DNA of 62,879 bases, filler included, from Psammoneis japonica (taxonomy: Eukaryota): the NCBI GenBank assembly GCA_008632985.1. It is 5 parts of 5 records of this genome, joined end to end, with 100 filler letters (N's around TTAATTAATTAA, not from the genome) between each part and the next. Parts side by side here need not be neighbours in the genome. Positions count along the whole stretch, not along the records: positions 50,685 to 62,879 come from QPGO01000513.1; 4 more parts are not named here. One strand, given 5' to 3'. A program made the translations under genes and the position numbers. Positions 5,488 to 62,879 of the stretch are shown here, one piece after another. Below the pieces are notes generated by a model. It saw only the letters and a list, made by a program, of their open reading frames with translations, had not been told where the DNA came from and ran no database searches. Numbering within the stretch: position 1 is the first letter of the stretch; every line of letters begins with the position of its first letter.

Positions 5488-5506
5488 TTCTTGCTCTGAA
5501 GCTGCC

Positions 5507-40899: not shown

Positions 40900-43800
40900 G
40901 TCACGACCCAAAGCTTCTTTGACCACATGAAATTTGCAAATGTGAGTTGCTTGAGCATGAACAACCAACACAAATGGACAAAAAAAATCTGCGCGAAAAG
41001 GTCAAACACCTTGCACCATGAAAAGCGTCTTTGACCACATGACATTTGCAAATGTGAGTTGCTTGAGCATGAACAGCCAATGCAAATGGGCAAAAAAAAT
41101 CTGCGCAAAAAGGTCAAACACCTTGCGCCATGAAAAGAACATTCAAGTGTTGGCATCACAGTCAAAAGAGTGACACAAACAAAATGCAGTGGCGCGGCAA
41201 AAACCAATGAAAGTGATTGCCGCCACATTGCAGGCTCTCATGTGCTTGGCTTTTGGGTGGCTTCTGTGCAAAAAGCACCCCGGGCAATCTCTGGACCACC
41301 GCCTCAAAGGTCAAATGGCTTCAAACAAAGCTTTGACAAAGAAACTTGGCAGTTGCTGTTGGTTTTGCAGCGTCAGTGCTCAGGTTCAAATTTTTCCTTT
41401 TTTGGGTTCAAACTTTCAACTTCAACCAACTTGGGTTTTAAGTTTGAATTTTGAACCCAGCTGGGTCCAAAATTGCAGTTTTTGACCCGCCCCGAAAAAG
41501 GAAGGCGTGCACTTCTCACGAGGCAGCAGGCGACCTGTGCACATTTCCTGTCAGTTTCAGCTGCACTTGAGCAGACACACCAGACAATCTTTGGACCACC
41601 GCCTCAAAGGTCACATGGCTCCAAACAAAGCTTTGACAAAGAAACTTGGCAGTTGTTGTTGATTTTGCAGCATCAGTGCTCGGGTTCAATTTTTAACCTT
41701 TTTGGGCTCAAACTTTCAATTTCAACCAACTTGGGTTTTAAGTTTGAATTTTGAACCCAGCTGGGTCCAAAGCAGCAGTTTTCAACCCAACCCAAAGCTT
41801 GAAAAGGTCAAACACCTTACATTGTGAAAACAATGTTCAAGTGCTGGCATCACAGTCAAATGAGTGACACAAACAAAATGCAGTGGCGTGGCAAAAACGA
41901 ATGAAAGTGATTGCCGCCACATTGCAAGCTCTGATGTGCGTGGCTTTTGGGCAGTTTCTGTGCAAAAAGCATGCCAGGCAATCTCTGGGCCGCCGCCACC
42001 TCAAAGGGCAAATGGCTCAAAACAAAGCTTTGACAAAGAAACTTGGCAGTTGCTGTTGGTTTTGCAGCATCAGAGCTCAGGTTCAAATTTTTCCTTTTTT
42101 GGGTTCAAACTTTCAATTTCGACCAACTTGGGTTTTTAAATTTGAGTTTTGAACCCAGCAGGGTCCACAACTGCAGTTTTCAACCCGCCCCAAAAAAGGA
42201 AGGCGCGCACTTCTCATGAGGCAGCAGGTGACCTGCGCACATTTCCTGTCAGCTTCAGCTGCACTTCAGCAGACATGCCGCAGTTCTTGGCCCGTTCATT
42301 TTCTGCTTGGCCTGGCACAACCCAAATCCATGATGATTTGGCACATTTTGCCCTGCAGAAGAGTTTTTGGGAGTGTTCTCTGGCTCGCGACACCAAACAA
42401 CATGCAAAGTGACAAGGACAACAAGGTTTTGCCAATTTCAAAAATGTGGTTTGCTGCATGCATGCAGACAAAAGGTTGTTTTTGTCATGCCCTTTGTGAC
42501 ATTTGAAGGCTGCAACACGTCGCCGTGGTGCATCAACTCTCATTGGCAGCTGTGTGCTGCGCTCCTCCCCATGCATCACGCGTCCATGCGGCTCTTTGCC
42601 AACGTGCGCTGACACTGCACGGTTTTGGCGGAACAGTGTGGGTGCGCACGAAGGAACATGCAGAGCTGCACAGAGTTTCACGCGTTCGACAGTGATCAAC
42701 GTTGCTGCAGACAACTCCCGCTCAGGGTTTCGAACCCCTGGCCTCCTGCCTGATGGCTGCGATGAACCACTCCGCTGTGAATTCACAGTGCAGTGTGCAT
42801 GCAGACAAAAGGTCATTTTTGTCACGCCCTTTGTGACATTTAAAGGCTGTGACACGTTGCCGTGATGCGCTGACTCTTGTCAGCAGCTGTGTGTTGCAGG
42901 TTGTTTCTGAGTTGCTTTGCAGTGTGCTCTTGATGGAGTGCTGCACATCGTGGCACAAGGCGTGATGATCTCAAGAGTGCACAGGCTCGCATGAGTGGCT
43001 GATGGCAAAAAATGGTGTTGGGGGTTTGCATTGACAACATTTCCTCTGTTGTGTTGTGACTGACCTCATGCACTGCCACTCATGCTGTTTGTTTCTCTGA
43101 GGCTTTGTGTGCTCACATCCAATTGACTTGCGCGCACTTTCTCTTTCTGTGCTGCGCTTTTGTTCTGCAGGCTCTGCATTGTTGTGAGGTGCCCCAGAGA
43201 CACTTTTTCTCTGCCAGCTCATCATGGTGGCTCCAACAACGTGGGCCACTTCTTTTGGCTGTGCTGCAGTTGAGCTCAAGAGTGCACAGGCTTGCATGGG
43301 TGGCTGATGGCAAAAAATCATCTTGGGGGTTCGCACTGACAACATTGCCTCTGTTGCGTTGCGACTGACCTCGTGCACTGACCTTCATGCTTTGTGCCTT
43401 GCTGAGGCTTTGTGTGCTCACAGTTGTTTGGCTTGTGTGTGATTTCTCTTTCTGTGCCGCGCCTTTGTTCTGCAGGCTCTGCATTGTTGTGAGGCACCCC
43501 AGAGACACTTTTTCTCAACCAGAGCATTGTGGTGGCTCCAACGGTGCAAACCACTTCTTTTGACTGTGCAGCAGCTTTGTGACCCAACAAATTTGGCAAG
43601 TGAAAGAGGAGCCATCAAAAGATGCAGATGATGCCATTTTGATGCATTTTCGTCTGGCGGCGTCATTGTCGCTCATGACAAAGAGCCGCGCTTTCTTGCT
43701 TTTTGCTGCGTCTGTGTGAGAAAAGTGTGTGCTTGGCTCTTGGGCAGTTTCTGTGCAAAAAAGTGCCGGGCATTCTCTGAACCGCCCTCTCAAAGGCCAA

Positions 43801-46800
43801 ATGGCTCTGAACAAAGCTTTGACAAAGCAGCTCAGCAGCTGTTGTTGGTTTTGCAGCGCCGGTGTTCGGGCTCAATTTTTTCCCTTTTTTGGGCTCAAAC
43901 TTTCAATTTTAACCAACTTGGGTTTTCAGTTTCGATTTTGAGCCCGATTGGGTCCAAAATTGCAGTTTTCGACCCGACCCAAAGCTTTGGTCACAAAACA
44001 CTTGCAAGTGCAAGTTGCTTGAGCATGAATGATCAACGCAAATGAAAAAAAAAATCCTCATGAAAAGGTCAAACACCTTGCGCCATGAAAAGAATGTTCA
44101 AGTGTTGGGGTCACAGTCAAAAGAGCAACAAAAACAAAATGCAGCGGCGCAACAAAACCAATGAAAGTGATTGCCGCCACATTGTGGGCTCTGATGTGCT
44201 TGGCTCTTGGGCAGTTTCTGCAGAAAAAGCACGCCAGGCAATCTCTGGACCGCCGCCTCAAAGGTCAAATGGCTCCAAACAAAGCTTTGACAAAGGAACT
44301 TGGCAGCTGTTGTTGATTTCTCAGCGTCAGTTCTTGGGTTCAAATTTTTCCTTTTTTGGGCTCAAACATTCAATTTCAACCAACTTGGGTTTCAAACTTG
44401 AATTTTGAACCCAGCTGGGTCCAAAATTGCAGCTTTTGACCTGCAGCCTCAGTGGCGGGGTTCAATTTTTTCTTTTTTGGGTTCAAACTTTCAACTTTGA
44501 CCAGCTTGGGTTGCAAATTTGAATTTTGAACCCAGCTGGGTCCAAAATTGCAGTTTTCAACCCGGCCCAAAGCTTTGGTCACAAAACGCTTGCAAGTGCA
44601 AGTTGCTTGAGCATGAATGATCAACGCAGATGAAAAAAAAAATCCTCATGAAAAGGTCAAACACCTTGCACCATGAAAAGAATGTTCAAGTGTTGGGGCC
44701 ACAGTCAAAAGAGCAACAAAAACAAAATGCAGCGGCGCAACAAAAGCCAATGAAAGTGATTGCCGCCACATTGTGGGCTCTGATGTGCTTGGCTCTTGGG
44801 CAGTTTCTGCAGAAAAAGCGCGCCAGGCAATCTCTGGACCGCCGCCTCTGAGGTCAAATGGCTCCAAAAAAAGCTTTGACAAAGGAACTTGGCAGCTGTT
44901 GTTGATTTCTCAGCATCAGTGCTTGGGTTCAAATTTTTCCTTTTTTGGGTTCAAACTTTCAATTTTGACCAGCTTGGGTTGCAAACTTGAATTTTGAACC
45001 CAGCTGGGTCCGAAATTGCAGTTCTTGACCCGACCCAAAGCTTTCTTCACAAAACATTTGCAAGCGCAGTTGCTTGAGCATGAACGATCAACGCAAATGA
45101 AAAAATCCTCGTGAAAAGGTCAAACACCTTGCGCCATGAAAAGAACGTTCAAGTGCTGGCATCACAGTCAAAAGAGCAACAAAAACAAAATCATGCAGCG
45201 GTGCAACAAAAACCTGTGAAAGTGATTGCCGCCACATTGTGGGCTCTGATGTGCTTGGCTCTTGGGCAGTTTCTGCAGAAAAAGCATGCCAGGCAATCTC
45301 TGGACCGCCACCTCAAAGGTCAAATGGCTCCAAACAAAGCTTTGACAAAGGAACTTGGCAGCTGTTGTTGACTTCTCAGCATCAGCTCTTGGGTTCAAAT
45401 TTTTCCTTTTTTGGGCTCAAACATTCAATTTCAACCAACTTGGGTTTCAAACTTGAGTTTTGAACCCAGCTGGGTCCAAAGTTGCAGCTTTTGACCTGCA
45501 GCCTCAGTGGCGGGGTTCAATTTTTTCTTTTTTGGGTTCAAACTTTCAATTTTGACCAGCTTTGGTTGCTGACTTGAATTTTGAGCCCAGCTGGGTCCAC
45601 AGCTGCAGCTTTTGACCCGAGACGCGCCCCAGGTCTAGGTGGCACCTCGCAATGCTGAACTGTGACATCTGCAGTTTTTTGAATCGCGTCGCATGTCGCG
45701 CACGTACATTTCTACGTGATTTTGGCGAAATTTTGCATGATTTTATGGTGCATTGATCAGGCCATCCATTGAACAACTTTTNNNNNNNNNNNNNNNNNNN
45801 NNNNNNNNNNNNNNNNNNNNNNNNNNNNNNNNNNNNNNNNNNNNNNNNNNNNNNNNNNNNNNNNNNNNNNNNNNNNNNNNNNNNNNNNNNNNNNNNNNNN
45901 NNNNNNNNNNNNNNNNNNNNNNNNNNNNNNNNNNNNNNNNNNNNNNNNNNNNNNNNNNNNNNNNNNNNNNNNNNNNNNNNNNNNNNNNNNNNNNNNNNNN
46001 NNNNNNNNNNNNNNNNNNNNNNNNNNNNNNNNNNNNNNNNNNNNNNNNNNNNNNNNNNNNNNNNNNNNNNNNNNNNNNNNNNNNNNNNNNNNNNNNNNNN
46101 NNNNNNNNNNNNNNNNNNNNNNNNNNNNNNNNNNNNNNNNNNNNNNNNNNNNNNNNNNNNNNNNNNNNNNNNNNNNNNNNNNNNNNNNNNNNNNNNNNNN
46201 NNNNNNNNNNNNNNNNNNNNNNNNNNNNNNNNNNNNNNNNNNNNNNNNNNNNNNNNNNNNNNNNNNNNNNNNNNNNNNNNNNNNNNNNNNNNNNNNNNNN
46301 NNNNNNNNNNNNNNNNNNNNNNNNNNNNNNNNNNNCTTTTTTGGGTTCAAACTTTCAATTTTGACCAGCTTGGGTTGCAAACTTGAATTTTGAACCCAGC
46401 TGGGTCCAAAATTGCAGTTCTCGACCCGACCCAAAGCTTTCTTCACAAAACATTTGCAAGCGCAAGTTGCTTGAGCATGAGCGATCAACGCAAATGAAAA
46501 AATCCTCGTGAAAAGGTCAAACACCTTGCGCCATGAAAAGAACGTTCAAGTGTTGGCATCACAGTCAAAAGAGCAACAAAAACAAAATCATGCAGCGGCG
46601 CAACAAAAACCTGTGAAAGTGGTTGCCGCCACATTGTGGGCTCTGATGTGCTTGGCTCTTGGGCAGTTTCTGCAGAAAAAGCATGCCAGGCAATCTCTGG
46701 ACCGCCACCTCAAAGGTCAAATGGCTCCAAACAAAGCTTTGACAAAGGAACTTGGCAGCCATTGTTGATTTCTCAGCGTCAGCTCTTGGGTTCAAATTTT

Positions 46801-49800
46801 TCCTTTTTTGGGCTCAAACACTCAACTTCAACCAACTTGGGTTTCAAACTTGAATTTTGAACCCAGCTGGGTCCAAAATTGCAGCTTTTGACCTGCAGCC
46901 TCAGTGGCGGGGTTCAATTTTTTCTTTTTTGGGTTCAAACTTTCAACTTTGACCAGCTTGGGTTGCAAACTTGAGCTTTGAACCCAGCTGGGTCCAAAAT
47001 TGCAGCTCTCGACCCAGCCCAAAGCTTTCTTCACAAAACATTTGCAAGCACAAGTTGCTTGAGCATGAGCGATCAATGCAAATGAAAAAAATCCTCATGA
47101 AAAGGTCAAACACCTTGCGCCATGAAAAGAATGTTCAAGTGCTGGCATCGCAGTCAAAAGAGCAACAAAAACAAAATCATGCAGCGGCGCAACAAAAACC
47201 TGTGAAAGTGATTGCCGCCACATTGTGGGCTCTGATGTGCTTGGCTCTTGGGCAGTTTCTGCAGAAAAAGCATGCCAGGCAATCTCTGGACCGCCACCTC
47301 AAAGGTCAAATGGCTCCAAACAAAGCTTTGACAAAGGAACTTGGCAGCTGTTGTTGATTTCTCAGCATCAGTTCTTGGGTTCAAATTTTTCCTTTTTTGG
47401 GCTCAAACTTTCAATTTCAACCGACTTGGGTTTCAAGTTTGAATTTTGAACCCAGTTGTGTCCAAAATTGCAGTTTTTGACCCGCCCCAAAAAAGGAAGG
47501 TGTGCACTTCTCACGAGGCAGCAGGCGACCTGTGCACATTTCCTGTCAGTTTCAGCTGCACTTGAGCAGACACTCCAGACAATCTTTGGACCGCTGCCTC
47601 AAAGGTCACATGGCTCCAAACAAAGCTTTGACAAAGAAACTTGGCAGTTGTTGTTGATTTTGTGGCATCAGTGCTCGGGTTCAATTTTTTCCCTTTTTGG
47701 GCTCAAACTTTCAACTTCAACCAACTTGGGTTTCAAGTTTGAATTTTGAACCCAGCTGGGTCCAAAACAGCAGTTTTCAACCCAACCCAAAGCTTGAAAA
47801 GGTCAAACACCTTGCGTTGTGAAAACAATGTTCAAGTGCTGGCATCACAGTCAAATGAGTGACACAAACAAAATGCAGCGGCGTGGCAAAAACGAATGAA
47901 AGTGATTGCCGCCACATTGCAAGCTCTGATGTGCGTGGCTTTTGGGCAGCTTCTGTGCAAAAAGCATGCCAGGCAATCTCTGGGCCACCGCCACCTCAAA
48001 GGTCAAATGGCTCCAAACAAAGCTTTGACAAAGGAACTTGGCAGCTGTGTTGATTTCTCAGCATCAGTCTTGGTTCAAATTTTTCCTTTTTTGGGTTCAA
48101 ACTTTCAAGTTCAACCAACTTGGGTTTTAAATTTGAATTTTGAACCAAGCAGGGTCCACAACTGCAGTTTTCAACCCACCCCAAAAAAGGAAGGCACGCA
48201 CTTCTCATGAGGCAGCAGGTGACCTGCGCACATTTCCTGTCAGTTTCAGCTGCACTTGAGCAGACATGCGCAGTCTTGCCGTCATTCTGCGTGCCTGGCA
48301 CACCAAGTCCATGCTGATTGGCACATTGCCCTGCAGAAGAGTTTTGGGATGTCTGGCTCGTGACACCAAACAACATGCAAAGTGACAAGGACAACAAGGT
48401 TTTGCCAATTTCAAAAATGTGGTTGTTTCTGAGTTGCTTTGCAATTTGCTCTTGATGGAGTGCTGCACATCGTGGCACAAGGCGTGATGATCTCAAGAGT
48501 GCGCAGGCTCGCATGAGTGGCTGATGGCAAAAAATGGCATTGACGGCTTGCGTTGACGACATTTCCTCTGTTGTGTTGTGACTGACCTCATGCACTGCCA
48601 CTCATGCTGTGTGTTTCTCTGAGGCTTTGTGTGCTCACATCCAATTGACTTGCACGCACTTTCTCTTTCTGCGCTGCGCTTTTGTTTTGCAGGCTCTGCA
48701 TTGTTGCGAGGTGCCCCAGAGACACTTTTTCTCTGCCAGCTCATCATGGTGGCTCCAACAATGTGCTCAAGAGTGCACAGGCTTGCATGGGTGGCTGATG
48801 GCAAAAAATCATCTTGGGGGTTCGCACTGACAACATTGCCTCTGTTGCGTTGCGACTGACCTCGTGCACTGACCTTCATGCTTTGTGCCTTGCTGAGGCT
48901 TTGTGTGCTCACAGTTGTTTGGCTTGCGTGTGCTTTCTCTTTCTGTGCTGCGCCTTTGTTCTGCAGGCTCTGCATTGTTGCAAGGCACCCCAGAGACACT
49001 TTTTCTTGACCAGAGCATCGTGGTGGCTCCAATGGTGCAAGCCACTTCTTTTGACTGTGCAGCAGCTTTGTGACCCAGAAAATTTGGCAAGTGAAAGAGG
49101 AGCCATCAAAAGATGCAGATGACGCCATTTTGATGCATTTTCGTCTGGCAGCGTCATTGTCGCTCATGACAAAGAGCCGCGCTTTCTTGCTTTGTGCTGC
49201 GTCTGTGTGAGAAAGTGTGTGCTTGGCTCTTGGGCAGCTTCTGTGCAAAAAGTGCCGGGCATTCTCTGAGCCGCCCTCTCAAAGGCCAAATGGCTCTGAA
49301 CAAAGCTTTGACAAAGCAGCTCAGCAGCTGTTGCTGGTTTGCAGCGCCGGTGTCGGTTCAATTTTTTCCTTTTTTGGGCTCAAACTTTCAATTTTGACCA
49401 ACTTGGGTTTTCAACTTCGATTTTGAACCCAGCTGGGTCCAAAATTGCTGTTTTTGACCCGACCCAAAGCTTTGGTCACACAACACATTTGCAAGTGCAA
49501 GTTGCTTGAGCATGAGTGGTCAACGCAAATGAAAAAAAATCCTCATGCTGAGCATGACGATGGCAATGAAAAGAAATCCTCCGAAAGACACCTTGCCCAT
49601 GAAAAGAATGTTCAAGTGTTGGGGTCACAGCCAAAAGAGCAGCAAAAACAAAATGCAGTGGCACAACAAAAGCCAATGAAAGTGATTGCCGCCACATTGT
49701 GGGCTCTGACGTGCTTGGCTCTTGGGCAGTTTCTGCAGAAAAAGCGCGCCAGGCAATCTCTGGACCACCACCTCAAAGGTCAAATGGCTCCAAACAAAGC

Positions 49801-50584
49801 TTTGACAAAGGAGCTTGGCAGCTGTTGTTGATTTCTCAGCGTCAGTTCTTGGGTTCAAATTTTTCCTTTTTTGGGCTCAAACATTCAATTTGAACCAACT
49901 TGGGTTTCAAACTTGAATTTTGAACCCAGCTGGGTCCAAAATTGCAGCTTTTGACCTGCAGCCTCAGTGGCGGGGTTCAACAATTTTCTTTTTGGGTTCA
50001 AACTTTCAATTTTGACCAGCTTGGGTTGCAAATTTGAACTTTGAACCCAGCTGGGTCCAAAATTGCAGTTTTCGACCCAACCCAAAGCTTTGGTCACAAA
50101 ACGCTTGCAAGTGCAAGTTGCTTGAGCATGAATGATCAACGCAAGTGAAAAAAAAATCCTCGTGAAAAGGTCAAACACCTTGCGCCATGAAAAGAATGTT
50201 CAAGTGTTGGGGCCACAGTCAAAAGAGCAACAAAAACAAAATGCAGTGGCGCAACAAAAGCCAATGAAAGTGATTGCCGCCACATTGTGGGCTCTGATGT
50301 GCTTGGCTCTTGGGCAGTTTCTGCAGAAAAAGCGCACCAGGCAATCTCTGGACCGCCGCCTCCAAGGTCAAATGGCTCCAAAAAAAGCTTTGACAAAGGA
50401 GCTTGGCAGCTGTTGTTGATTTCTCAGCATCAGTGCCTGGGTTCAAATTGCTCCTTTTTTGGGCTCAAACTTTCAACTTTGACCAGCTTGGGTTGCAAAC
50501 TTGAATTTTGAACCCAGCTGGGTCCAAAATTGCAGCTCTCGACCCGACCCAAAGCTTTCTTCACAAAACATTTGCAAGCACAAG
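40900..50584 (+). repeat. Complex satellite array (~300-590 bp units) with a ~6-kb higher-order duplication
   Basis: aaaaggtcaaacacctt recurs at ~40997, 41108, 41802, 44063, 44651, 45114, 46511, 47100, 47797 and 50165. 41.45-44.9 kb is repeated at 47.45-50.58 kb. Confidence 0.93.
42715..42785 (-). other. tRNA-like remnant (Pol III A and B boxes), possible SINE head
   Basis: Minus strand CAGCGGAGTGG (A-box with TA->CA) and CAGGGGTTCGAAACCCTG (B-box/T-arm stem-loop). No clean cloverleaf. Confidence 0.3.
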
Positions 50585-50684
50585 NNNNNNNNNNNNNNNN
50601 NNNNNNNNNNNNNNNNNNNNNNNNNNNNTTAATTAATTAANNNNNNNNNNNNNNNNNNNNNNNNNNNNNNNNNNNNNNNNNNNN

Positions 50685-52360
50685 TTCTCAACTGTCGGCC
50701 ACTCGCAATCTAGCCCAATCACCCGCTCACCTTCTGGTCTCTGCTTTGTGAGGTCTCGCAGAGCATCAACAGCCGTGTCCATTTCGGCGTTGCTGTGTGG
50801 GACACGAATGTCTTCAGGGTTAATTTTGCAGACAGGGAATTCATCGTCAGCAGCGGAGGTGGTTGCAGTGCAGCTCTTGTTGTGCAACTCTTCAAATTCT
50901 TGCAAGGATGGAATCATGTCAAGAAGGAAAGCTTTGTCGGCACCAGGTTTGTCGGTGAATGCAAGCTCCACCGGATCCTGCCCGTGCGCTTCAACTGTCT
51001 TCAGAAAGGCGGACATTGCATTCCGCATCTGGTCATGGCCATCGGACACCACGTGGTGTTGCATTCTCATCTCACCAAACTCATTTGCACAGGTGACAAG
51101 CCCCTTGAATGTGGGGTTGCTGTGGCATTGACAAAGGTGCTTCGCCTCTTTGAATGAAGCATCAATGTGCAGGCGACGAGCTCCCCTCTTCTTCACCTCT
51201 TTGTCCAAATGCGGGCGAGTGGACTTGTGATGCTCCTTGTGGACATGAGCGTGGTGCTTCCCAGTCGGGACAAGTCCGTCGTGTCCCGATTTGTCAGAGA
51301 ACGGTGAGCACATGCTTCGCCGAACTGTTGGATTCAACATCCTCTCACGCTTGCACTTGTTCTCCCGTTTGATGTGTTCGCGGCAGTGCTTTTTGGAGTG
51401 CAACTCAAGAAGCAGGCTGGAAAGGGCTTCCGGGCACATTCCTTTGTCGTGCACTGGACGCATGAGGTCTGGCACTGTTTCCTCATTCACTCCGGCCCTG
51501 TGAGCAAGGAAAGCAGGAAACTCATCGCCGCATCCATGAGGAAGCAGTTCAGTGGATGCGGGGTTGCAGCCCACAAAAGTGTGTTGTGTCACGTCATCGT
51601 CACCTTGCCTTCATTGTTCCTTGCAGCCATGACAAATGCATTGGGCTGTCATGGCACAGTGGCACGTGTTCAGTGCAATGACTCGTCTTGCACAGTGATT
51701 CGTTTGACATCCGTGAACACCAACTCGATGGTTCGATCCGCATGAGACACAAAATGGAGTGGCTTCTGGACCCCACCTGATGTGAGGCAGCCAAACAATG
51801 ATCTCTCAGTAGCATGAGGGCTCTTCACAATCGACACCAAGCTTCTGACAGGTCTTCCGTGCATCTGTGACGGGAATTCTCCAATCACTTTCTTTTGGCT
51901 GCTCCAAGAGCCACCTTCTGTTCAGAGCCCCACCGAGATTCCCAGTGGTTTCTTGCCTGAGTTGATCACGAACTGCCCTCAGGCATTTGAGCATGGTCCC
52001 GCCAGGTCCACTGATGTCTTCATCCATGAGATCATCACACTCAGCAAAATCATCCAGCTCTGCCACCACAGGAGGCAAGTCCTCAATCCTCAAAGAGGGC
52101 TCGTCTCTGTCTGGGTCTTGCTGTCCTTCTTCTTCATCCACATCTTGAACTTCTGGTGGATTGTGTTCCTCTGCCCTGGGAGGAGTTACTTGAGTTCTCA
52201 CAGCGCCGCCATTCAGAGCCGCAGCCATGGCCTCCCTGCCCTTCTGGGCCTTTTTTGCAGCCATTTGCCTCCTCCTCTCTGCTTTCTCCTCTGGAGTCAA
52301 AGCTCGCCTCTTCTTCCTTTGTTTCTTATCCTTTGATCCTTTCTTTCTGCCTGGTGCCAT
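50685..52360 (-). mobile_element. Decayed putative transposon gene (DUF6729-like region) running into a DEDD 3'-5' exonuclease motif I
   Basis: EFPAFLAHRAG..LMRP..LLELHSK, HIDASFKEAKHL..FKGLVT..NEFGEMR, then RVIGLDCEWP at the gap. NLS-like N-terminus MAPGRKKGSKDKKQRKKRR. Domain naming is from recall only. Confidence 0.55.
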
Positions 52361-52709
52361 GGTTGTTGTTGACGACAATACGATTCGAACGTCGGTGCGG
52401 TATGGAGTGTGGAGTTGTTTTTTGCGAGTTGTCTTGCGGGGTTTGTTTCTGCAATTTTTTGGGCGCGGTTCCACCACACAAGTATTTATTGCTGAAGCGA
52501 GCGTGAAAGATTGGCTCCGCGTCTTCTGATTGGCTGAATCCCAAGATCTTTTACTCTTCGCGCGGTTTCGACGTGTTTTTGGCAGTACAAAACCCACGTA
52601 CTGGGGTTCGAGCTCTCGAGTAAAAGATCCAGTAGCATGAACTATGAGCCGCTCTAGCTAGGGCTACTCTAGAGAGAGAGAGTAGAGTCCATAGTCTTAC
52701 CGCGCGCGA

Positions 52710-53192
52710 TAAGGACCGGCTAAATGCGCTCGTCTAAACCAGGTTTTGCGCCCCAAAATGCGCAAAAGTTGGCTACGTGTATCTGTGTAGACACAGTACT
52801 GTTAGATGACGTCACAGCCTCCCTCCAACCCTGCGCGCTCTGCATGCGCGCTGCCGCGAGCTTCAACACCCGTGACTGAGATCCTGTGCGACATTCTTGA
52901 GATCTGCATGTTTGAACGACTCAACCAGCAAGTACTATCACTTGCTTGAGTAGGTGATAGCTGCAAATGTATGTAATAGTGAGTTTTATGGCAGTCACTT
53001 TGTTTCTAATTACTTCTGTGATTCTGTGCAGTTGCTAGCTAGTAGCTCATCACGGCGAGTGAGATGCAACGTTTCGGTGTAAGCCACGTAGAATCCTAGT
53101 ATGTTTCTACGCAAGAGCGCATTTTTGCGCATTTAGCGCAAAATGAGCCCCAAAAACTCAAAAATGCGCACTGCGCATTTAGCCGGTCCTTA
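52710..53192. mobile_element. Non-autonomous hAT-type MITE (483 bp)
   Basis: Perfect 20-bp TIRs TAAGGACCGGCTAAATGCGC (52710-52729) and GCGCATTTAGCCGGTCCTTA (53173-53192). 8-bp TSD GCGCGCGA at 52702-52709 and 53193-53200. Subterminal AAATGCGCA motifs. Confidence 0.93.
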
Positions 53193-53302
53193 GCGCGCGA
53201 ATCTTTATTATTTTCGTCGCCGCCCGTGTTAATCTCCAATCTCTTTGTGAAGTGTCATCCTTATTCCCACAGTAAGGAAATATCGACTCTCAGATTGCCG
53301 CC

Positions 53303-55669
53303 ATGTCATCGTCACAGCAAGCGACCCGTCGAGCATCGGCACAGAACGCCTTGGAAAATTACTCGGAGGGTGTGCAGACAATGGTGCGAGAGCAAGTGGA
53401 AGATCATTATTCGAGCCGTTCGGTCGCATCCTTGACACACAAGCAGCTCTTGGTCGTGAGCAAGGGCATGGGACTCGTACCTGTGCATGCCCCGTCAGTC
53501 TTGTCCTTTCTCGAAAGACAATGTCATGAAACTTCCGCTGCGAAAAATTGCTGCAAAACCGTTATGCTTGATGAAGAAGTTGAGATCTCTAGAGAAAAAA
53601 TCGCCTCTCTACACTTGACGGCTTCTTCAATGGAAGAAGTCTATGAATTGACTAGAGACAGCGTTGCTCTATCCTATGTTCAGAGCGTACGAAGCGACCA
53701 TGATCGTCTTCATTATCACACCCCGATTTGTCATGCGATCCGAGGACACTACGGAGTCAAAAACAACAAAGGTTTTCCACGCAAGGCAGGTATATGGCTA
53801 GATCAACTCGCCAAATACCAGAACCCCGACTGCCGGGACGGTGCCTGGGGGAAAATGGGTAACATACCGTACTTGAACTTGCCTGTCTTGGCCGCCTTGC
53901 CCATGTGCGTCTTTGTTGATTCTGCCACTGCCCGACGGGCCACTATCCCCCTCCTAGACCGACGCTTTCCACTAGATGCCTACTTGAGAGGAGCGGTACG
54001 GCTACTCGCTTACACCTTTCCCCGAACTGGTGGGCTGCAACGGCGTGAAGATGGCCTGCCTCGAAAACATCCGGAATACCCATGGACAACGATAGGAGGC
54101 TCTCAGAACGTTTTTGTTGCAGAGTTGCTCAAAGTTTTGGATTCCAACATCATTCAATATGCGCTGGGATGCTGCGAAGAACTTTACGGCTCGATGAACG
54201 ATAATGGCGTGCCCAACTTCCCCATTTTCTCGCCCTGGTTTCGGACATGGCCGATGGTAGAACGGTCCATGGGGATGTCTTTCAAGGGCCTTTATATGGA
54301 TTCATCTTCCTGGACGGTCGCAGCACTTGTTGTGGCCATCATGGATGTGCTATCCAGTGCCATGTATGATGTCGTCTTTACCGAACGCGCGCCAGAGGAG
54401 AGCAAATTGCTTTCAGTTGTGGAAAACCTCTTCGATGACTCCATGAAGAATGGGCTTTTTGATTCGCTTTCTGACGAGCTAGTACACTTTCGAGATCTCA
54501 GCCCACTTCATGTTCGTGAGTTTCTTGATTTGCTGGACGAAGGCTACGAGACATTACTCAGGACGGAGTTCAGGTCTTCCAAACCTGTCGACTACGAGCA
54601 TATGGTCCAGATGCTCGCAGCGAAATGGAAGGATCGCGGCGCTGAAATTGATCTGCTTAAAACATTCCCGTGGACATCCGAATCTATGAACGGAATGTGT
54701 CGTGGTCAAGACATTTTGAATCGTCTTCGGTCCAGCTTTATCACCCACGCGGACATATTTTCGGTAGCGGACAAGGTGGACATTGCGTTGGGATTGATTT
54801 GTGGGCTGGGTGGATCCAGCAACTTGGATCGTCTTGAGGCGGCGCTCTTTTTCCAAAGAAAAAGTAAGCCATTGTCGTCGTCGTCGTCCGCGACCCCATT
54901 CGTGTGGGCGCACGAGAGGAACCGAATCCGCGTTGCGGAGGCTGCCCTTTGTGTTGGAAATGATCGTCTGGAAAATGATGTTCCACTTTTTACTTTGGCA
55001 CCACTTGTCAATCTCCAGACACTTGGCGTGTGGATGAAAGTACATTTGAGCTGGGATGAATGTCGCATCGAGGCTGAGCAGGCGGCGCTAAAGACTCGAA
55101 TATTAGGAATGATGAACCAAGTTGGCGGGTATCTCTGCGTCATTCACTCTGACATGACCTGTCAGTTCGTCGTCGTAAGCAATCGGGAACTTCAAGAGGC
55201 GTTGCAATCGTTGTCACACATACCGACAGGCTCCCGCTCGCCAGGCAACCCACTTCAACTAGAAATCTACGGCAGCCTTCACTTTACGACATTTTGTGAT
55301 AGCGTTGGAAGCACAGTTTGTTTCCTCTGGTTGAAGGAAGAGCTGGTGGTCGACAGTGGCATCAAGCGACTTCGTGAGAGAACGCAATTCACGCACCAAT
55401 TATCTTGGTGCAGACGCGGACCAACCGACGACAAAGCCAGCACAGGGGTGACCAACCGCGTCGATGATTCCGGATTAAAATCTTTCCAATCTGAACTGTC
55501 CACAATGGAAGAGTCAGCTTTCCGGGGCTCAGCTCCCGTGGTCTTCTGGCGTGAGGGTCATCTCGCATGCGGGTTGAAAATGGAGACCGTGATTCAATTA
55601 TTTCGAGACGGAGACTTCGAAGATTACGACGTGCGACCCGTAGTGAGACGATCAAGTGCTCCGTGGTGA
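53303..55669 (+). CDS. Hypothetical protein, 788 aa
   Basis: Uninterrupted long ORF of normal composition; no domain recognised. Confidence 0.8.
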   Translation: MSSSQQATRRASAQNALENYSEGVQTMVREQVEDHYSSRSVASLTHKQLLVVSKGMGLVPVHAPSVLSFLERQCHETSAAKNCCKTVMLDEEVEISREKIASLHLTASSMEEVYELTRDSVALSYVQSVRSDHDRLHYHTPICHAIRGHYGVKNNKGFPRKAGIWLDQLAKYQNPDCRDGAWGKMGNIPYLNLPVLAALPMCVFVDSATARRATIPLLDRRFPLDAYLRGAVRLLAYTFPRTGGLQRREDGLPRKHPEYPWTTIGGSQNVFVAELLKVLDSNIIQYALGCCEELYGSMNDNGVPNFPIFSPWFRTWPMVERSMGMSFKGLYMDSSSWTVAALVVAIMDVLSSAMYDVVFTERAPEESKLLSVVENLFDDSMKNGLFDSLSDELVHFRDLSPLHVREFLDLLDEGYETLLRTEFRSSKPVDYEHMVQMLAAKWKDRGAEIDLLKTFPWTSESMNGMCRGQDILNRLRSSFITHADIFSVADKVDIALGLICGLGGSSNLDRLEAALFFQRKSKPLSSSSSATPFVWAHERNRIRVAEAALCVGNDRLENDVPLFTLAPLVNLQTLGVWMKVHLSWDECRIEAEQAALKTRILGMMNQVGGYLCVIHSDMTCQFVVVSNRELQEALQSLSHIPTGSRSPGNPLQLEIYGSLHFTTFCDSVGSTVCFLWLKEELVVDSGIKRLRERTQFTHQLSWCRRGPTDDKASTGVTNRVDDSGLKSFQSELSTMEESAFRGSAPVVFWREGHLACGLKMETVIQLFRDGDFEDYDVRPVVRRSSAPW

Positions 55670-56165
55670 CCTCCTAGATATGTCAACCTATGTACCGTGC
55701 CAGAAGGACCCTTCAACCCGAATATATGTTAGTTTTTTTGGCGTGCCGGCCGGATCGCCGCTCCTACTGAACTGTGCTATGAATTCTAAAATTCCTTCAG
55801 GGCAGTAGCAGTAGCTAGCTGCTAGCTAATAGCACCGACGCCTCTCGAATACGTGAACGGGAGGTTGTTGCCGGCAGGGCTACTCCAGCCCCCCTTGATA
55901 CAGTCGAGGCAAGTTATTCTCTTCCCCCCAGCAGGAAACGCGCCTGCAGTAATCGTCGCAGACTAGAATGTTGCAAGCTCTGGTTCCTACACTGTATCTG
56001 CTGCAAGGTATTCTTTATAGAGAGTGAAAATTGGCATACCGGTATAGAAAAATGCAGGATTTTCTGAGCATTCCTGTCTCGCTGTCGAATAGAATGTGAA
56101 TTCCCAGAAAAAGGACAACAAAAAACAACCGAAACCAACCCCCATGCAGCTGGCGGCATGCCCAG

Positions 56166-56738
56166 TGACAGGCAGCTTGCTTGTGTTAGCTTGTACATCA
56201 CCCTGATAAATTCTATTACATAAATCCTTGCCGCATCGTCCTTTGTCGTTGCTGCTGCAACACCTTCGATGCAATGAATGAATAACAAACACTGAACGGC
56301 CGATACAAAAGGATGAAGTGCAAAAGATGTTTCTAATTGTTGTTGTTCCATTCTTAAATGTCTTAAGAATGGCGCAGGGCAGGTACATGAAATGGTGTTT
56401 TGCCAATGGCTTTGGCATGGAGTTGTTTTGATAGAGGTAGAGAAAGAACTGGGTACTCGCCTGAGAGTGTCTTGGGTGATCAAGTCCGTGCACTAACAGG
56501 AGAGAGCAAGCTAGAGCCTAATCTAGAAACAGTACCTTGCGATAATGCTTTGTCTAGAAGTTGTGAGAGATTCTGAGCTAGTCTCAGAGTCGACATGGCT
56601 GTCAGAACGGATAGATTCCGACAGGTTGTTGAAACACTCCGAAAGATCAGCAAATTTCAGTCATAAACCCGACTGAACATATGTGCTATCTTCGAACATG
56701 CGGTTCCAATATAAAAGGGTCATGTGGGATCCCTGTCA
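56166..56738 (-). repeat. Probable 3' LTR of the copia element (573 bp)
   Basis: PPT AAGGGGGG (minus strand, 56746-56739) abuts TG; 7-bp inverted termini TGACAGG (56166) and CCTGTCA (56732-56738). The 5' LTR is outside the window, so the far end is inferred. Confidence 0.65.
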
Positions 56739-59700
56739 CCCCCCTTGAACCGAATGAGGGAAGATGAGAAGGAGCTCATGACAACATGTGTGCAGGTAGG
56801 CGCCATAGGGCACGGTCGACCATAACCCAAATTTTGTCTGCACATTGAGTTTTGGTGAGGCAGTCCGCTAATTGACTTTCCGCGGGGACCCAAACAAGTA
56901 AGTGATGACCGAGTCGCTGCCCTTCGCGGACACATTGGAAGCGTCGCTCAACATGTCGGGTTCGTCGAGTTTGTTGGTCGTTTTGGGCCATTTGGACTGC
57001 GGCTTGGTTGTCCAACATGAGGATCATGGGAGCAGTGGACAGGCACTGGGAGTCAATGGAGCAGTGGCGAGTGCCAAGGAAGGTGAAGTCGCAGGCCAAC
57101 ATGCGCAGGTGAGCAACAGCCATGGCGCCAGTGCAGGCACCCATCCACTCGGATTCGGCAGCGGACATTGCGACAGGGGTTGGGACAGTGGAATTGGCTT
57201 CCACTGTTGCCCCATTGAAGTAGACCATAAATCCAACGGTCGACTTGGCGGTGTCCGGACAATCCTGCCAGCTGGCATCGGCGAAGACCACAAATTCAGA
57301 ATGACTGACATTGTGAGCTTCGCAAATCGCGTGAACAGGGCTCGCGGTAGGATCAGAATAAAATTTGATGGCGAGGTCTTGATGTTTGCAGAGACAGCCA
57401 AAAAGGTGGACGAGAGCATCAAAATCCTTCACACCAGGGTTGGTGCAAGCCTTTGCAAGTTTGCAGGTGATCCAGAGAATGTCAGTGCGAGTGTTGCAGG
57501 CAAGATGAAGGATGGAGCAGACAGCGGATCGAAAATGGAGACCAGGATGCTTGTTCGCGATTTGCTTGGATTCGGCGGCGTCCTTGGGTTGATTCGCCTT
57601 GGAGCACACATGGTCAACGGGGGCTGGGGTGCCCTGAAAGCTGGGGCTGCCCCAAGGCGAGGTGGGAGCAAGGAACCGCTTGAGGAGATTGCGCACATGT
57701 CGATGTTGGTCGAGAGAGAAGGAGCCGTCGGAACATCGGTGAGTGTGCATCTGCAAGAACCAGGTGACGTCACCGTTGAATGTGATGTTGCACCTGGATC
57801 GCACGAGGTTCTCAAAATCCTTCTCGACTCTGTCGTGAGACCCAAAGCAGATGATGTCATCCGTGTAGAAAATGAGCTTGAGACATGAGCCGTCGGGGAA
57901 GTGCTTGGCAAAGAAGGTGGGATCTGCTTTGGAATTGGTGCATCCTTGGGCAAGTGAAAATTCGGAGAGCTCGGTGGACCACCAAAGACTGCTGCGGATG
58001 GTCCCGCACATGCCTTTCTTGAGATGAAGGGGTGCACCAAAGCATTCAGCATGTTCAGGAAAATGTTGCTTCAGAATCGGGTCGAAGCAAACAAAGAGGC
58101 GGCCGCGAGCAGGGGCTTGAAGGCAAGCACCGACAAAATCACCATTCTTGACGTGTTGTTTGGCCTTTGCTGCAAAAGCTGGGAAGAGCTTGATGGCACG
58201 AGAGGATGCGTTTGGTGACCAATTGTCGTCATCGGCTGATTTGCGTTGCATGTCGCCGCGCGCACAGTGTCGAGCCTTGAGTTTCTCCAGAGAGCCGTCA
58301 GATTTCTCTTTGGCACGTAGAGCAAGTGTGGCGCCGATGATCTCATCGTCTGGACGGGGGACATTCATGAAGAGCGAAGGCTTCATTGTCCACGATGAGG
58401 TTCTTGAGCTCAGATCGGACGGCACGAAGCCAGGCGTCACGAATCGCAGGAGGTTGTCTGAGGATGGCTCGAAAAGAGCAGGGAATGGGCAAGCAGTCAT
58501 CAACAGGAATCGAAGAGGTGGCCTGGACGGCTTCCAAGGCCTGTTGCAAAGGATCTGGGCATTTGTGCCAATTGCAGTCAGGCCAAGGGGATTTCGACGG
58601 AGGCGCTGCATGCAGATTCCATGGCGAGCGAGTCGTCGAAGAGAGTTTGTTCGAGAAGATCGACTGGGGGGAGTGGAGGAGGTCACAGCGTAGAGTTGCT
58701 CCTCGTCCGCGAAGCGTGCGGAAGTGCGGAGGCCAGCGTTGGTGCGAGTGGATCATCTGAGACCAGTTGCAGCGGGTGCAGGGGATGGTGGCTCTGAATC
58801 GGATTCATCAGATTCCGGAGGCGCTTCAGTGAGAGTAGAGGGAGAAGGGGGTGAGTCAGCATCAAGGAAATCTTGAATGGCACCCGCATGTTCATCCACA
58901 GGATTCTCGTTGCATGTCTTTGGGCCGGAGGCGTTGTTGGAGATGTTCCGGATCGGGAGTGCGCCAGAAAAGGGGACGTGGTCGTGCACGAGTGATGATT
59001 CGAAAAGTTCGTCGAAGACAGCGTCATGCGTGACAATCAGATTCTTGGTGCCGATGCCCTCAGGAACATGGATGAGGCAACCAGCCTGGTTTGGTGCAAA
59101 ACCGACATGAATGCCACGAGATCGACGTTGAATCTGTTGTTGAGTGGTGGTCGGGCAACGAGTTTCCGGGTTGAGAGGTTGGCATCTGTCGAAAGTGACG
59201 GGACATCCGAAGACCCGAAAATTGCCAATCTTTGGAAGTCTGTTTGAATGCATGGCAGTGCGGTGCAGCCAGTGAGCTGTCAGGGAGCCGTGTGCCTTTA
59301 GCTGGGAGGACGTTCAGGATGGCGATGGCATGAACGAATGCATGATGGCAGAAGTGTGCCGAGAGTCTTGCGTTGACAAGAAGGCAACGAATCATCTTGC
59401 TTGCGACTTGCCACATGCGTTCCGCAACCCCGCTCTGCTCCTGGTGACATGGAGCGGCGACTTCGACCTTGATTCCATTGTCTTCACCAAAGGCAAGAAA
59501 TTCGGAGGACAGAAAACATGTTGCAGAGTCCGCGCGGACGAAGTTTGTGTCTTGGATTTGTCCCTGGGATTGTACTTTGGTCATCCATGATTTAAAAGCG
59601 GCGATGATGTTGCCAGATGATGGGCTCTCAAGGCCACGAACACCGCAGCAGTGTCCTTTGTGGGTTGCCAAAAAGAGGTGGGTGGGGAAAAGACGTTTTT

Positions 59701-62700
59701 GGGGTGAGTGCGACTGTGTGAGGGTTGGGAATTATGTCCACAAACACACGTGAAAATGTGTGTGTTGGTTCAGTTGGGTCACACTTAACGCGGTTGCGCT
59801 TTCGGGAGATGGCGATGCGCGCGTTGTCGAGATGGTCGTCAGTCCCGGGGGCAATGTGGCAGTCGCGCCAAACTTCGCCAACTGTGCCCGCCAAAAGGCT
59901 CTGAGAGGAGCGACAACCGAAACGGTGACCTGCAAGGTCAAGGTCGATTGCATGTGTCGTTGGTTTCGATGAGCCTTGGGCGTTGGTTGCTTCCGTCAAC
60001 GGGGGGTCAGAAGTGGGTTCTGCAGCAGCGGTGGCATCGTGACAGGAGCGCTTGTGATGGAGAATCAGGAAGCTGAATGTGTGTCCGTCGCCAAAATCAA
60101 GTGTCGTGATGTTGGTGGTGATTCGGACATTGAAGAGTTCATTGGCCATGAAGGAGGGCACCGAAAACAAGTTCCGGTTGAGGCCGGGGATGCGACAGAC
60201 GCGATCGAGAACAAGGTTGACCGGATGTCCTTGGTCGTCTTGAAAATGGAGGGTGACGGATCCAACTTTCGTGGCATGAATGGTGGTGCCGTCTGCAACA
60301 ACAACAGGGACGTGACAGGGGGTGCTGTCATCAAGTGAGTCATGACGAACGAAATGAGAAGAGGCACCAGAGTCGACAAACCAACTGCTGATGTCCGTGA
60401 GGTCGGAGTCGCGGGGCAGTTGGTGAGGTCGGCACTGGTTGGGATCGTCGGCCATGCATGCAACTTGAACGTGACAATCAGCGGTGTCGCATGAGAAACG
60501 GGGGATGGTGTCAACCGCATCGATAGAGTCACAGCTGAGATCAGATGTGATGGAGTCGTCATCATCGTCAGAGATTGCAGTGTGCCTGGATGCGCAAGAT
60601 GCCGTGGTGAAAGCGTCGTGGAAATCGAAGCAGACTGGTGACACCGCGGGAGAGTTCCCGGGGGGCGGTTCATCAAAAGGGTGGGCCGCAGCATCATCCG
60701 GTTCGCATGGGCGATGGATCAAAGACGGCACAGTGGATGATGAACCCGCGCTGGAGTCGCAATCATGATGGGCTAGAGGAGGTGGACCAGAGGAGGTCGA
60801 GCAGGCCGATGAAGGTTCATTGCCATCAGGTGTGCATGAGCGACAGAGCAAAAGCGGCATGGCAGATGAGGAATCTGTGCTGGAGCTGCAGTCGTGGTGT
60901 GCAAGAGGCGGAGGACCAGCAGAGTTCAAGTTGGTGGAGAAAGTTTTGTTGCCATCAATCGAAGAGGTGTCATCGAGGAGGTCCTGGAGAGTGATGGCAG
61001 GCATTGTTCCATGAGTGGAGGAAGATGCGATCGAGTCACTCGTGGAGTGGCAGGCCGATGAGTCGTCATCAAAGGAGACGTGGCGTGGTTCCAGGGTTGG
61101 GATAGAGTCTGAACAGGAGGGACAACAAGGGTGAGCATCCTCCATGTCAGCTCGAGCAGCACAGAAAATGATTTGGTCCTTCGGTGGAGGTGCCTTTGCG
61201 CGGCAGTGCATGGTGGGTGCAGTGGCTGTGAGAGCGGTTTGTTTTGAGTCCTTTGCGAGTTCGGGACAGTCGGGACGAAGGTGCCCCTTTTTTCTGCAGT
61301 GATGGCACATGACTTTGCTCAGGTCGTGAGGAGGTTTGGCAGCAGGTTGATCCTTGGGTGTGCCCTTCTTCAGATCGCGGAGCCGAGAGCGACATTCGGA
61401 GGCGTTGTGGTTGCGTTTTCCACAGCAGTCGCAGATCTCGGTGGCGTTAGGTTGGTTTGGGCGACGTTGCTGCTGTTGCTGTCGTTGTGCATTCCGAGGA
61501 GCGCGTTTGACGGCAGCAAGGTGAGCATGGTTGTTGTGAGAGCGGGAGCGGGAGCCATGCGAGAGCCGATCACGATGCTGTTGGTTGTGATGCTGCTCGT
61601 CGATGTCATAGAACGTTTGCTGGATGTCCTTGAACCGGGGAGCGGTGGCAGAGGAGAGACGAGCAGCAGTTCGAAATTCGGATTCGAATTGCTTGATGGC
61701 AGCATCGCAGCGGGGATGGCTGCCCATTTGGCTGAGAAAATGGGTGCTGATTTCCGCATCAGTCTTGACTGGAAGGCCGGCGTTCTTGCAGCTCCGGAGT
61801 TTTCGCTCAAACCGTTGGATGAAGCTGCTGGCGGACTCGTCCGAGTTGCGAAAGACTTGCAGGTGGTCGTTTGAACAGCAGTTGCTGTGTTCCTGAGTGA
61901 TGGGCACACAGCGCAGCTGGAGTTCTTCGAGAGCAAGTTTGCCGGAACGAGATCCAAGGTCAGAAATGTCAGATTGGTGTGTTGCATCCACATGCGTCCA
62001 GAGGAGAGCACAGAGGGCGTTGTCGGCATGGTCTGGAAGTGGGCGGAGAGGGACAGAGGGAAAATCATTGAGCAGACCATTGAATTCTGGAAAAGATGCA
62101 AAGGTCCCACGCAAGTCATTCAAGAATGCACAAAACTTTTGTCGTCGCGTGTGCGGATTCTGATGGTGCTTCAGAGTGCGCAAATTTGTGTGAGATGCAT
62201 GCTTCATCAGAGAATTCGACAAGGATTCCGAGGTGCGCTCGTTTGCAACATGAGAGAAAACAGTGTCGTTGACTGATGAGTGATGAGCGGACGGGGAAGC
62301 GGGGTGTGGTCGTGGGGTGAGGGCAAGGCGGAACATGAGTTCCAAGTGAAGGGACTCGGCGTCGCGCATCATGTCCTGAAAACGACGAAGTGCAAGAGTG
62401 CTTGCTTCGCAAGCAGGGTGTCGACAAAGGAGGCGCTCGAAAGACATTTTCGCCGAATCGACAGTGTCACAAAGCTCAACGGCACGTTCATTCTCACGAT
62501 GGAAAAACGGTGCGAGAGCTTGTTGGGTGTCGAAGAGAGCCTCGAAGGTGACGAGACGAACCTGGACGTTGATGTCATTGTCGACGGACAGATCAGGCGC
62601 GTCAGAGGTGTCGGACGAAGCTGGAGCAGGTGAGTCAACTGCAGGAGTGTGAGCAGGAGAGGCAAGAGCCTTGTCAAGTGCTCCATCCATTTCGTTCAAC

Positions 62701-62879
62701 ATGGGAGCAACAACATCAAAAAGTTGAGTCGCAGAGGTTGAAGATGATGGGTCGACATGGGAGAGAGCAGGAGTGGCTTGATCCGTTGGAGATGAAAGCG
62801 GGGGGAATTCCTCAGGGACCCCAGTGGTGCATGACATTGGGTGGCGGGTCGTCAGCAATGGGTTGAGACCCCCCTTGAG
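56166..62879 (-). mobile_element. Ty1/copia LTR retrotransposon (gag-PR-IN-RT-RH), near complete, TpA-hypermutated
   Basis: Two CCHC knuckles (CDCCGKRNHNASEC, CHHCRKKGHLRPDC); protease WFVDSGASSH; integrase VFVD..RADS..QEQSGVAER; RT LKARHCARG, YTDD; RNase H FADASW, AESE, DNQAA, TRHVERR, QLADCLTK. Integrase lies upstream of RT. Confidence 0.96.

Follow-up and report, generated by a model that had tools for sequence, protein, structure and literature searches.

Near-complete loss of TpA, uncoupled from loss of CpG, in a Ty1/copia retrotransposon and other sequence blocks of the diatom Psammoneis japonica

How does a retrotransposon come to be nearly devoid of the dinucleotide TA while CG stays abundant? 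The question arises at positions 56860-62879 of a 62,879-nucleotide stretch of DNA from the diatom Psammoneis japonica, referred to here in its entirety as the window, where the internal region of a Ty1/copia long terminal repeat (LTR) retrotransposon is recognised. Several further questions follow. Is the depletion specific to TA and restricted in extent? In which direction did the change run? Is it tied to the loss of CG, and what kind of process could be responsible? The window consists of five assembly pieces of 12.2-12.7 kb, concatenated, of which positions 50,685-62,879 represent QPGO01000513.1. Four identical linkers of 100 bases each (44 N, then TTAATTAATTAA, then 44 N) occupy positions 12666-12765, 25472-25571, 38275-38374 and 50585-50684. 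Because the window is a set of five joined pieces, the relic blocks described below are loci on other pieces of one assembly and not neighbours of the element.

An initial annotation had described 56860-62879 as rich in CG and almost without TA, and this is borne out. Expressed as the ratio of observed to expected counts from base composition (o/e), TA occurs 20 times where 306.9 would be expected (o/e 0.065), and CG 384 times where the expectation is 425.0 (o/e 0.90). The narrower interval 56900-62879 holds 18 TA (o/e 0.06), 381 CG (o/e 0.90), 592 TG and 438 CA; taking a host-gene baseline TA o/e of about 0.6, the Poisson probability of 18 or fewer TA is 3e-55. The edge of the block is sharp, with TA dropping from 3-7 per 100 bp to 0 near 56900. 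Gene-bearing parts of the window give TA o/e 0.59-0.63 and CG o/e 0.94-1.09. The same annotation named two relics, at 3-8 kb and 16.4-19.5 kb, as having lost both dinucleotides, and a third region at 50.7-52 kb as intermediate. The values agree: TA o/e is 0.04 and CG o/e 0.14 for 3000-8000, 0.05 and 0.18 for 16400-20000, and 0.05 and 0.55 for 50700-52300.

A scan for TA-poor stretches delimits four blocks, to which the loss is restricted. Together they comprise 39,392 of the 61,972 non-N bases (approximately 64% of the window), with CG o/e spanning 0.21-0.90.

2811-13580: TA-free block on two assembly pieces across a linker; TA o/e 0.083, CG o/e 0.34; open reading frames (ORFs) without a Pfam domain.
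16261-20220: TA-free, CG-poor block; TA o/e 0.061, CG o/e 0.21; TA-normal paralogue at 23.2-24.1 kb, relative to which TA became TG or CA at 17/17 sites and CG was kept at 0/20.
32931-52370: TA-free block extending over three assembly pieces, with a tandem array inside it at 41-50.6 kb; TA o/e 0.038, CG o/e 0.40.
56831-62870: TA-free block of the copia element.

Block boundaries fall inside single assembly pieces, adjoining normal genes such as MCM4 (TA o/e 0.6). Among the 16 dinucleotides, depletion is limited to TA and CG. TG and CA are over-represented in the TA-poor blocks, with o/e of 1.3-2.0, and the summed frequency of TA, CG, TG and CA is 0.23-0.26 per base in every block. This constancy fits interconversion via transitions inside pyrimidine-purine steps.

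The element is identified as a Ty1/copia LTR retrotransposon by its RVT_2 match, by a gag zinc knuckle and by domain order, the minus strand giving gag, protease, integrase and reverse transcriptase (RT) as is the rule for Ty1/copia. The parts are as follows.

56900-62879, minus strand: TA-free internal region; Pfam RVT_2, Pol_BBD and SH3_retrovirus; extends past the end of the assembly piece.
59628-62879, minus strand: gag-protease frame of 1083 residues, open at the window end; Pol_BBD at residues 833-912, E 2.4e-11.
59060-59731, minus strand: frame-shifted piece at the expected place of the integrase core; 0 Pfam families.
58753-59313, minus strand: integrase C-terminal piece; SH3_retrovirus E 2e-5, 24.9 bits, just below the Pfam cut-off of 27.
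56776-58752, minus strand: RT/RNase H frame of 658 residues, almost free of Tyr; RVT_2 E 5.8e-13.
56742-56899, minus strand: last 125 bp or so of pol and a purine tract (CAAGGGGGG on the element strand); 5 TA, o/e 0.53, a normal density.
56350-56741, minus strand: putative 3′ LTR with a TG start after the purine tract; 20 TA, TA o/e 0.67, CG o/e 0.57; loose contig ends at 56348-56396.

By reading, the gag-protease translation contains two CX2CX4HX4C zinc knuckles. The integrase core (rve) was not detected by Pfam in the frames of the element, and the integrase C-terminal piece closes with an in-frame stop immediately ahead of the RT frame; in total the polyprotein carries one in-frame stop and two frame changes. 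We infer that 56350-56741 is the 3′ LTR. No second LTR copy was found in the window, the 5′ end of the element lying beyond the assembly piece, and neither blastn, tblastn nor purine/pyrimidine coding revealed further copia-family copies in the window. Fragilaria crotonensis provides the named RT relatives. The closest relatives of the element are short fragments of 60-67% identity, and neither of the protein searches returned a copy from the same genome. We note a strand asymmetry in the copia copy (56900-62879), with 2045 G and 1233 C on the plus strand and hence a C-rich sense strand, an imbalance left unexplained by TA>TG and TA>CA changes, which are roughly symmetric.

Long reading frames had been listed among the features of the element. 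They are present, with ORFs of at least 100 residues on both strands, but they fail as an independent sign of youth because a change of TA to TG or CA cannot create stop codons and destroys TAA and TAG. Over six frames 257 of the 279 stops in the element are TGA, as opposed to 91 of 150 in the neighbouring gene.

Was TA present in the ancestor of this copy? The RT frame was aligned with 24 of 42 relatives (P0121-P0141, P0143, P0145 and P0146; the other 18 were omitted), and a column was taken as conserved when one residue was common to at least 70% of at least 12 relatives. At the 12 conserved Tyr columns the element has Tyr once, Cys five times and His four times, and Cys and His are the exact products of TAY>TGY and TAY>CAY. 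In conserved Ile columns there are five replacements by Val (T/ATH>T/GTH across the codon boundary) and two by Thr, while most other residue classes are retained in 50-100% of conserved columns. Tyr makes up 0.6% of the element RT frame compared to 3.7-5.8% in the 24 relatives. Against P0286, the closest relative found by exhaustive library search (60% identity), 17 Tyr are matched by six Cys, four His, three Phe, one Tyr and three other residues. On the sense strand TA>TG gives ten replacements, five Tyr>Cys and five Ile>Val, and TA>CA six or seven, comprising four Tyr>His, two Ile>Thr and, provided its codon was GTA, no more than one Val>Ala. Such replacements indicate that TA was present in the ancestor and was lost regardless of protein function, on both strands and with purifying selection absent. 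To judge from its frames, the copia copy is a dead product of mutation and not a lineage adapted to avoid TA.

Low TA is not a trait of the copia family. TA o/e lies between 0.39 and 1.13 at every one of 53 related copia RT loci taken from metagenomes, with a value below 0.2 in none of the 600 windows of 500 bp across these loci, and each of 148 further library representatives has at least 1.7% Tyr, none being Tyr-poor like the element. In five of the metagenome loci (L022, L030, L032, L033 and L036) CG o/e is 0.23-0.36 at a TA o/e of 0.39-0.67, from which it follows that CG loss without TA loss occurs in other organisms.

Paralogues within the window also inform on direction. Recoding as purines and pyrimidines exposed paralogies that ordinary blastn had missed, and three pairs join a TA-free to a TA-normal copy.

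18983-19200 (TA-free) and 23923-24140 (TA-normal): TA to TG or CA 8/8, CG kept 0/8, transversions 18/206 (8.7%).
18440-18960 (TA-free) and 23180-23670 (TA-normal): TA to TG or CA 9/9, CG kept 0/12, transversions 35/456 (7.7%).
9500-9780 (TA-free) and 26710-26975 (TA-normal, inverted): TA to TG or CA 9/10, CG kept 11/13, transversions 25/260 (9.6%).

When the pairs are pooled, TG or CA stands opposite TA at 26 of 27 sites, with 13 TG and 13 CA. Together with the Tyr to Cys or His replacements this sustains the proposal that TA loss ends in TG/CA. The sequence at 9500-9780 is a second case in which TA was lost and CG retained.

Two further comparisons between copies are available. A young tandem duplicate, 12157-12353 and 12359-12559, differs by 20 transitions and one transversion. 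At its TA sites one TA is kept in both copies, three are changed in one copy and four appear as TG/CA double differences; at its CG sites six are kept in both and six changed in one. The time elapsed is equal for the two dinucleotides and the numbers are small. The second comparison draws on run X1, a contig set from one DNA sample in which summed contig depth does not equal copy number. These contigs match the unique gene adjoining the element with 0 differences in 3262 bases at a depth of 31 and contain 40% of the sampled words of the element. They cover the element in many diverged pieces with summed depths of 270-1100, so that the copia family is multi-copy in the X1 organism; for the putative 3′ LTR the summed depth is 2617 against the 31 of the unique neighbour gene. 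Set against all other X1 contigs, the copia copy shows at least four adjacent pairs with TG opposite CA or the reverse and has lost at least seven CG that every other contig keeps, and at five or more sites where it has TG or CA other X1 copies keep TA. At position 56824 the window has TA and all nine other contigs TG. Pieces starting at 56693 and 56775 reveal that other copies are homologous across the boundary between TA-normal and TA-free sequence. The copia copies diverged after the onset of TA loss.

At the edge of a TA-free block there is a tandem duplication of approximately 960 bp (19765-20734 and 20733-21684, 94.7% identity). The copy nearer the block lost six TA that the other keeps, with one case of the reverse. 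The asymmetry is mild, and since 6 versus 1 differences are too few, spreading from the block is not arguable.

Is TA loss tied to CG loss? In 118 windows of 500 bp, 11 combine TA o/e below 0.15 with CG o/e of at least 0.7 and 55 combine the same low TA with CG below 0.7. The opposite state, TA of at least 0.4 with CG below 0.3, occurs once, in the tandem repeat at 27001. This repeat, with periods of 98-171 at 27093-28007 within an open frame (27336-28136), is the sole site in the window with normal TA but low CG (o/e 0.25-0.35). Further TA-free stretches with moderate CG occur at 12766-13580 (TA o/e 0.02, CG o/e 0.68) and 42450-43000 (0.04 and 0.70). Within the copia copy, by definition of one age, at least 90% of TA is gone while CG is at most some 10-15% below par. 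The proposal that TA loss is uncoupled from CG loss and more complete therefore stands on the 11 windows against one, the copia copy and the pair at 9.5-9.78 kb. These observations support TA loss and CG loss being separate processes.

The further proposal of a two-speed clock is overstated. TA is at its floor in every block and so carries no time information beyond an early phase. In the three paralogue pairs similar transversion distances go with opposite CG retention, which speaks against CG loss as a simple function of age and fits its dependence on local methylation. A competing account of the CG-rich state is accordingly that the copia family or locus is free of CpG methylation and not of short residence, the two marks having no temporal order. 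The TA-free copies that have diverged by 8.7%, 7.7% and 9.6% in transversions but keep 0/8, 0/12 and 11/13 CG speak for this account, as do the five copia loci elsewhere that are CG-poor without TA loss. Against it, CG loss without TA loss is seen in just one of the 118 windows, among the TA-free blocks the copia copy alone continues to match protein domains, and this copy is already without at least seven CG that all other contigs keep. We consider this account possible, though on the doubtful side; as readings of the CG state, a clock and methylation status are roughly evenly balanced. The issue is limited to the clock, and absence of methylation would be compatible with the mechanism that we now set out.

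We think it probable, with some reservation, that the blocks record DNA-level TpA hypermutation of long repeats together with a separate, slower process that removes CG, and that the copia copy is a dead product of the former. In outline, the diatom host would apply hypermutation to the DNA of long repeats, converting A:T to G:C only at TpA steps and on either strand, such that TA becomes TG or CA, near to completion. The adenine of TpA may be deaminated to inosine by a DNA-acting deaminase, as proposed for the chlorarachniophyte Bigelowiella natans, and targeting might rely on chromatin that is silenced or foreign, perhaps above some threshold of length. The second process would strip CG from the same class of DNA, likewise ending in TG/CA, and the most likely candidate for it is that 5-methylcytosine is deaminated at CpG. 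The copia copy would then be past the TA process with the CG process barely begun, if its CG state does reflect time. The mechanism is put forward on the likeness of the footprint to that in B. natans, which is also the source of the suggested chemistry.

Which TA survive, and which sequences are spared? TTAA is 5.4-fold over-represented among the 129 surviving TA (linkers excluded), while ATAT and ATAC/GTAT, which make up 202 of the 892 TA of normal DNA, account for 0 of the 129 (chi-square P = 7.6e-22). Of the 18 survivors in the copia copy, 12 are TAG on the plus strand, six of these being TAGAG. Among the spared sequences one directly adjoins a TA-free block.

52703-53199: MITE-like (resembling a miniature inverted-repeat transposable element) multi-copy element of 497 bp with 27-bp inverted repeats (96%) at its ends; TA o/e 0.90, CG o/e 1.14.

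It is represented by approximately ten contigs with a summed depth near 630, against 31. A simple model in which all repeats are mutated fails on account of the spared short repeats; a length threshold or chromatin targeting may explain the sparing of short multi-copy sequences.

Several points weigh against hypermutation of long repeats as the explanation. TA is kept by the multi-copy 3′ LTR candidate (o/e 0.67), by the 160 bp or so before it and by the MITE-like element (0.90), and short TA-normal paralogues of TA-free repeats exist. The TA-normal LTR candidate may itself have arisen through joining during assembly or as the consensus of numerous copies. TG/CA double differences, such as those in the young duplicate, can in principle derive from ancestral CG. 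CG retention is independent of transversion distance in the three paralogue pairs. Finally, the X1 evidence on variants covers 40 of the 1232 variant rows, together with 13 of the 944 pieces, and the counts of changes given above are those of these rows.

An alternative chemistry is that the thymine of TpA is modified, for example hydroxylated by an enzyme of TET/JBP type, and then misread as C. TpA is self-complementary, so A>G on one strand is indistinguishable from T>C on the opposite strand in the sequence, and the equal outcomes, 13 TG to 13 CA, suit either base. Thymine modification at TpA occurs in some protists; to our knowledge a T-to-C outcome of thymine hydroxylation chemistry has not been established. 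The sole experimental precedent proposes adenine deamination, itself unproven, and we regard the thymine route as unlikely.

Could the copy have been edited as RNA or single-stranded cDNA during retrotransposition, by an ADAR- or APOBEC-like activity, and inserted already free of TA? The element is a retrotransposon. Editing gradients exist along retroviral cDNA, and the sparing of the LTR candidate and the adjoining 160 bp loosely resembles them. Metazoan ADARs favour a 5′ U, as cited in the main text of bioRxiv 10.64898/2026.01.13.699255. Action on one strand predicts TA>TG or TA>CA alone, whereas both are seen about equally on the sense strand, and copies show TG and CA at one and the same site. 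Tandem arrays and repeats with no trace of reverse transcriptase are equally TA-free, and non-coding repeats have both TA-free and TA-normal paralogues. In B. natans, moreover, the process described in that main text acts on integrated single-copy DNA in dividing cells. Editing before insertion thus appears very improbable. Weaker still, and hardly credible, is the idea that the scarcity of TA is inherent in the element, selected for or due to codon usage, or is an artefact of sequencing or assembly, for which nothing speaks except the composition itself and against which stand the destruction of conserved Tyr, the TA-normal relatives, the independent X1 contigs that match the neighbour gene with 0 differences in 3262 bases and hold 40% of the element words, and the block boundaries inside single pieces beside normal genes.

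How does hypermutation of long repeats at TpA compare with known systems? The closest likeness is to B. natans, in which mutation-accumulation lines revealed that integrated viral DNA undergoes hypermutation specific to TpA (Mettrop et al. bioRxiv 10.64898/2026.01.13.699255, main text). According to that text, two integrated viral regions acquired 231 new mutations, 230 of them A>G or T>C and all located at TpA, with a rate of approximately 6e-7 per site per generation, some 1000 times background, and with activity in some lines only. The coding sequences with near-zero TpA were enriched in reverse transcriptase and DDE domains, and an ADAT2-type adenine deaminase acting on DNA is put forward by the authors without proof. 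The footprints share the restriction to TpA with TpG and CpA as products, a coupling of TpA depletion to an excess of CpA and TpG, and confinement to foreign or repeat DNA beside genes of ordinary composition (here TA o/e 0.04-0.08 versus 0.59-0.63).

There are also differences. B. natans belongs to the Rhizaria and the present host, a diatom, to the Stramenopila. The main text reports 124 clusters in a 95-Mb genome, while the footprint here is saturated over tens of kb, 64% of the window. The target there was a giant-virus insert and here it is an LTR retrotransposon and unclassified repeats. The words 'CpG' and 'diatom' do not occur in the main text of the preprint (bioRxiv 10.64898/2026.01.13.699255), nor does that text, supplements being outside this scope, treat CG decay in relation to TpA loss, a tetranucleotide bias among surviving TA or an exemption of short repeats. 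No report of TpA-specific loss in diatoms was found in the literature covered, which included PMC2806351 and bioRxiv 10.1101/2025.10.24.684338 and did not extend to subscription journals or supplements. New with respect to B. natans are a second supergroup, a saturated footprint, the way TA loss relates to CG decay, a bias in the sequence context of the TA that survive and the exemption of short repeats.

Fungal repeat-induced point mutation, or RIP, is similar in its heavy, transition-only mutation of repeats, in killing transposons, in its sharp block edges and perhaps in exempting very short repeats. In RIP the threshold for repeat length lies at a few hundred bases. It differs in changing C to T mostly at CpA, with TpA enriched, whereas here TpA is erased and G+C rises. 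A duplication trigger like that of RIP is not a given, as the target in B. natans is described as single-copy. Decay of CpG in methylated transposable elements accounts for the other blocks being poor in CG and rich in TG/CA (CG o/e 0.14-0.55) but it cannot remove TA, and the copia element, with CG o/e 0.90, is barely affected; CG methylation of transposable elements is established in a model diatom (PMC9998398). Hypermutation by animal ADAR and APOBEC enzymes likewise involves deaminase-type, context-specific transitions directed against selfish nucleic acids, the ADARs sharing the 5′ U preference noted above. Those enzymes act asymmetrically on one strand of RNA or cDNA, while here both strands are equal and non-retroelements are also affected.

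A broader proposal, which we advance tentatively and with slightly less than even confidence, is that diatoms may hold a persistent DNA-level defence that rewrites TpA to TpG or CpA in long repeats, an A:T mirror of RIP that erases ATAT and ATAC/GTAT, finds TTAA refractory, exempts short repeats and LTRs and completes long before CpG decay. Since the same signature is present in a rhizarian alga, the system might be old and shared across the stramenopile, alveolate and rhizarian (SAR) lineages. If this is true, transposons would follow an ordered, two-stage degradation path with TA lost first and CG later, and the order TA first, CG later or never offers a testable model of how silenced DNA ages in these genomes. 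TpA hypermutation has so far come from one preprint and one chlorarachniophyte; a diatom footprint would add a second, ecologically dominant lineage. Diatoms include transformable model species, which opens the enzyme and its targeting to genetics. There are practical consequences also. TA-free repeats evade ordinary similarity searches, several paralogies being visible only after purine/pyrimidine recoding, and TA-free DNA bears spuriously long ORFs on both strands that may mislead gene callers. The dating of transposon insertions from transitions would be inflated.

The TA-free blocks outside the copia element were also compared with Pfam. None of the 114 ORFs scanned, out of 147 of at least 90 residues, gave a match above the curated cut-off, and the 33 omitted all lie within the tandem array at 41-50.5 kb. 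The sole weak match among the 114 was Secretin_N_2 (E 0.0018), under its cut-off. As there is no Pfam match above cut-off, the transposon identity of these blocks is not established.

The remaining annotated features of the window are ordinary host genes and two long ORFs.

366-2631, minus strand: MCM4 gene, divided into three frame pieces, two short introns being probable; ordinary host gene.
21710-22741, plus strand: alpha/beta hydrolase gene; ordinary host gene.
30184-32529 and 53276-55669: two long ORFs without a Pfam match.

The best named matches of MCM4, at 71-75% identity, are to diatoms only (among them Mayamaea, Nitzschia, Epithemia, Fragilariopsis, Skeletonema, Cyclotella, Chaetoceros and Thalassiosira); with the copia relatives, this marks the host as a diatom.

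Some structural features were also observed. The tandem array at 41000-50584 has periods of 112-466 and higher-order units of approximately 2.2 kb at 91-93% identity, and includes a gap of 554 N at 45782-46335. Its TA o/e is 0.02 and its CG o/e 0.45; AT is likewise scarce (0.55-0.66), and AA/TT values are high. Inverted repeats at 34271-34860 and 39720-40699, with matched segments of 315 and 266 bp some 5-6 kb apart, are seen only in purine/pyrimidine coding (88%, as opposed to 65-73% in nucleotides) and may mark the two ends of one large element that has undergone heavy mutation. At 28349-28808 there is a near-perfect palindrome with arms of 225 nucleotides, 94% complementary and 10 nucleotides apart; the stretch around it is AT-rich (GC 0.38) and normal in TA.

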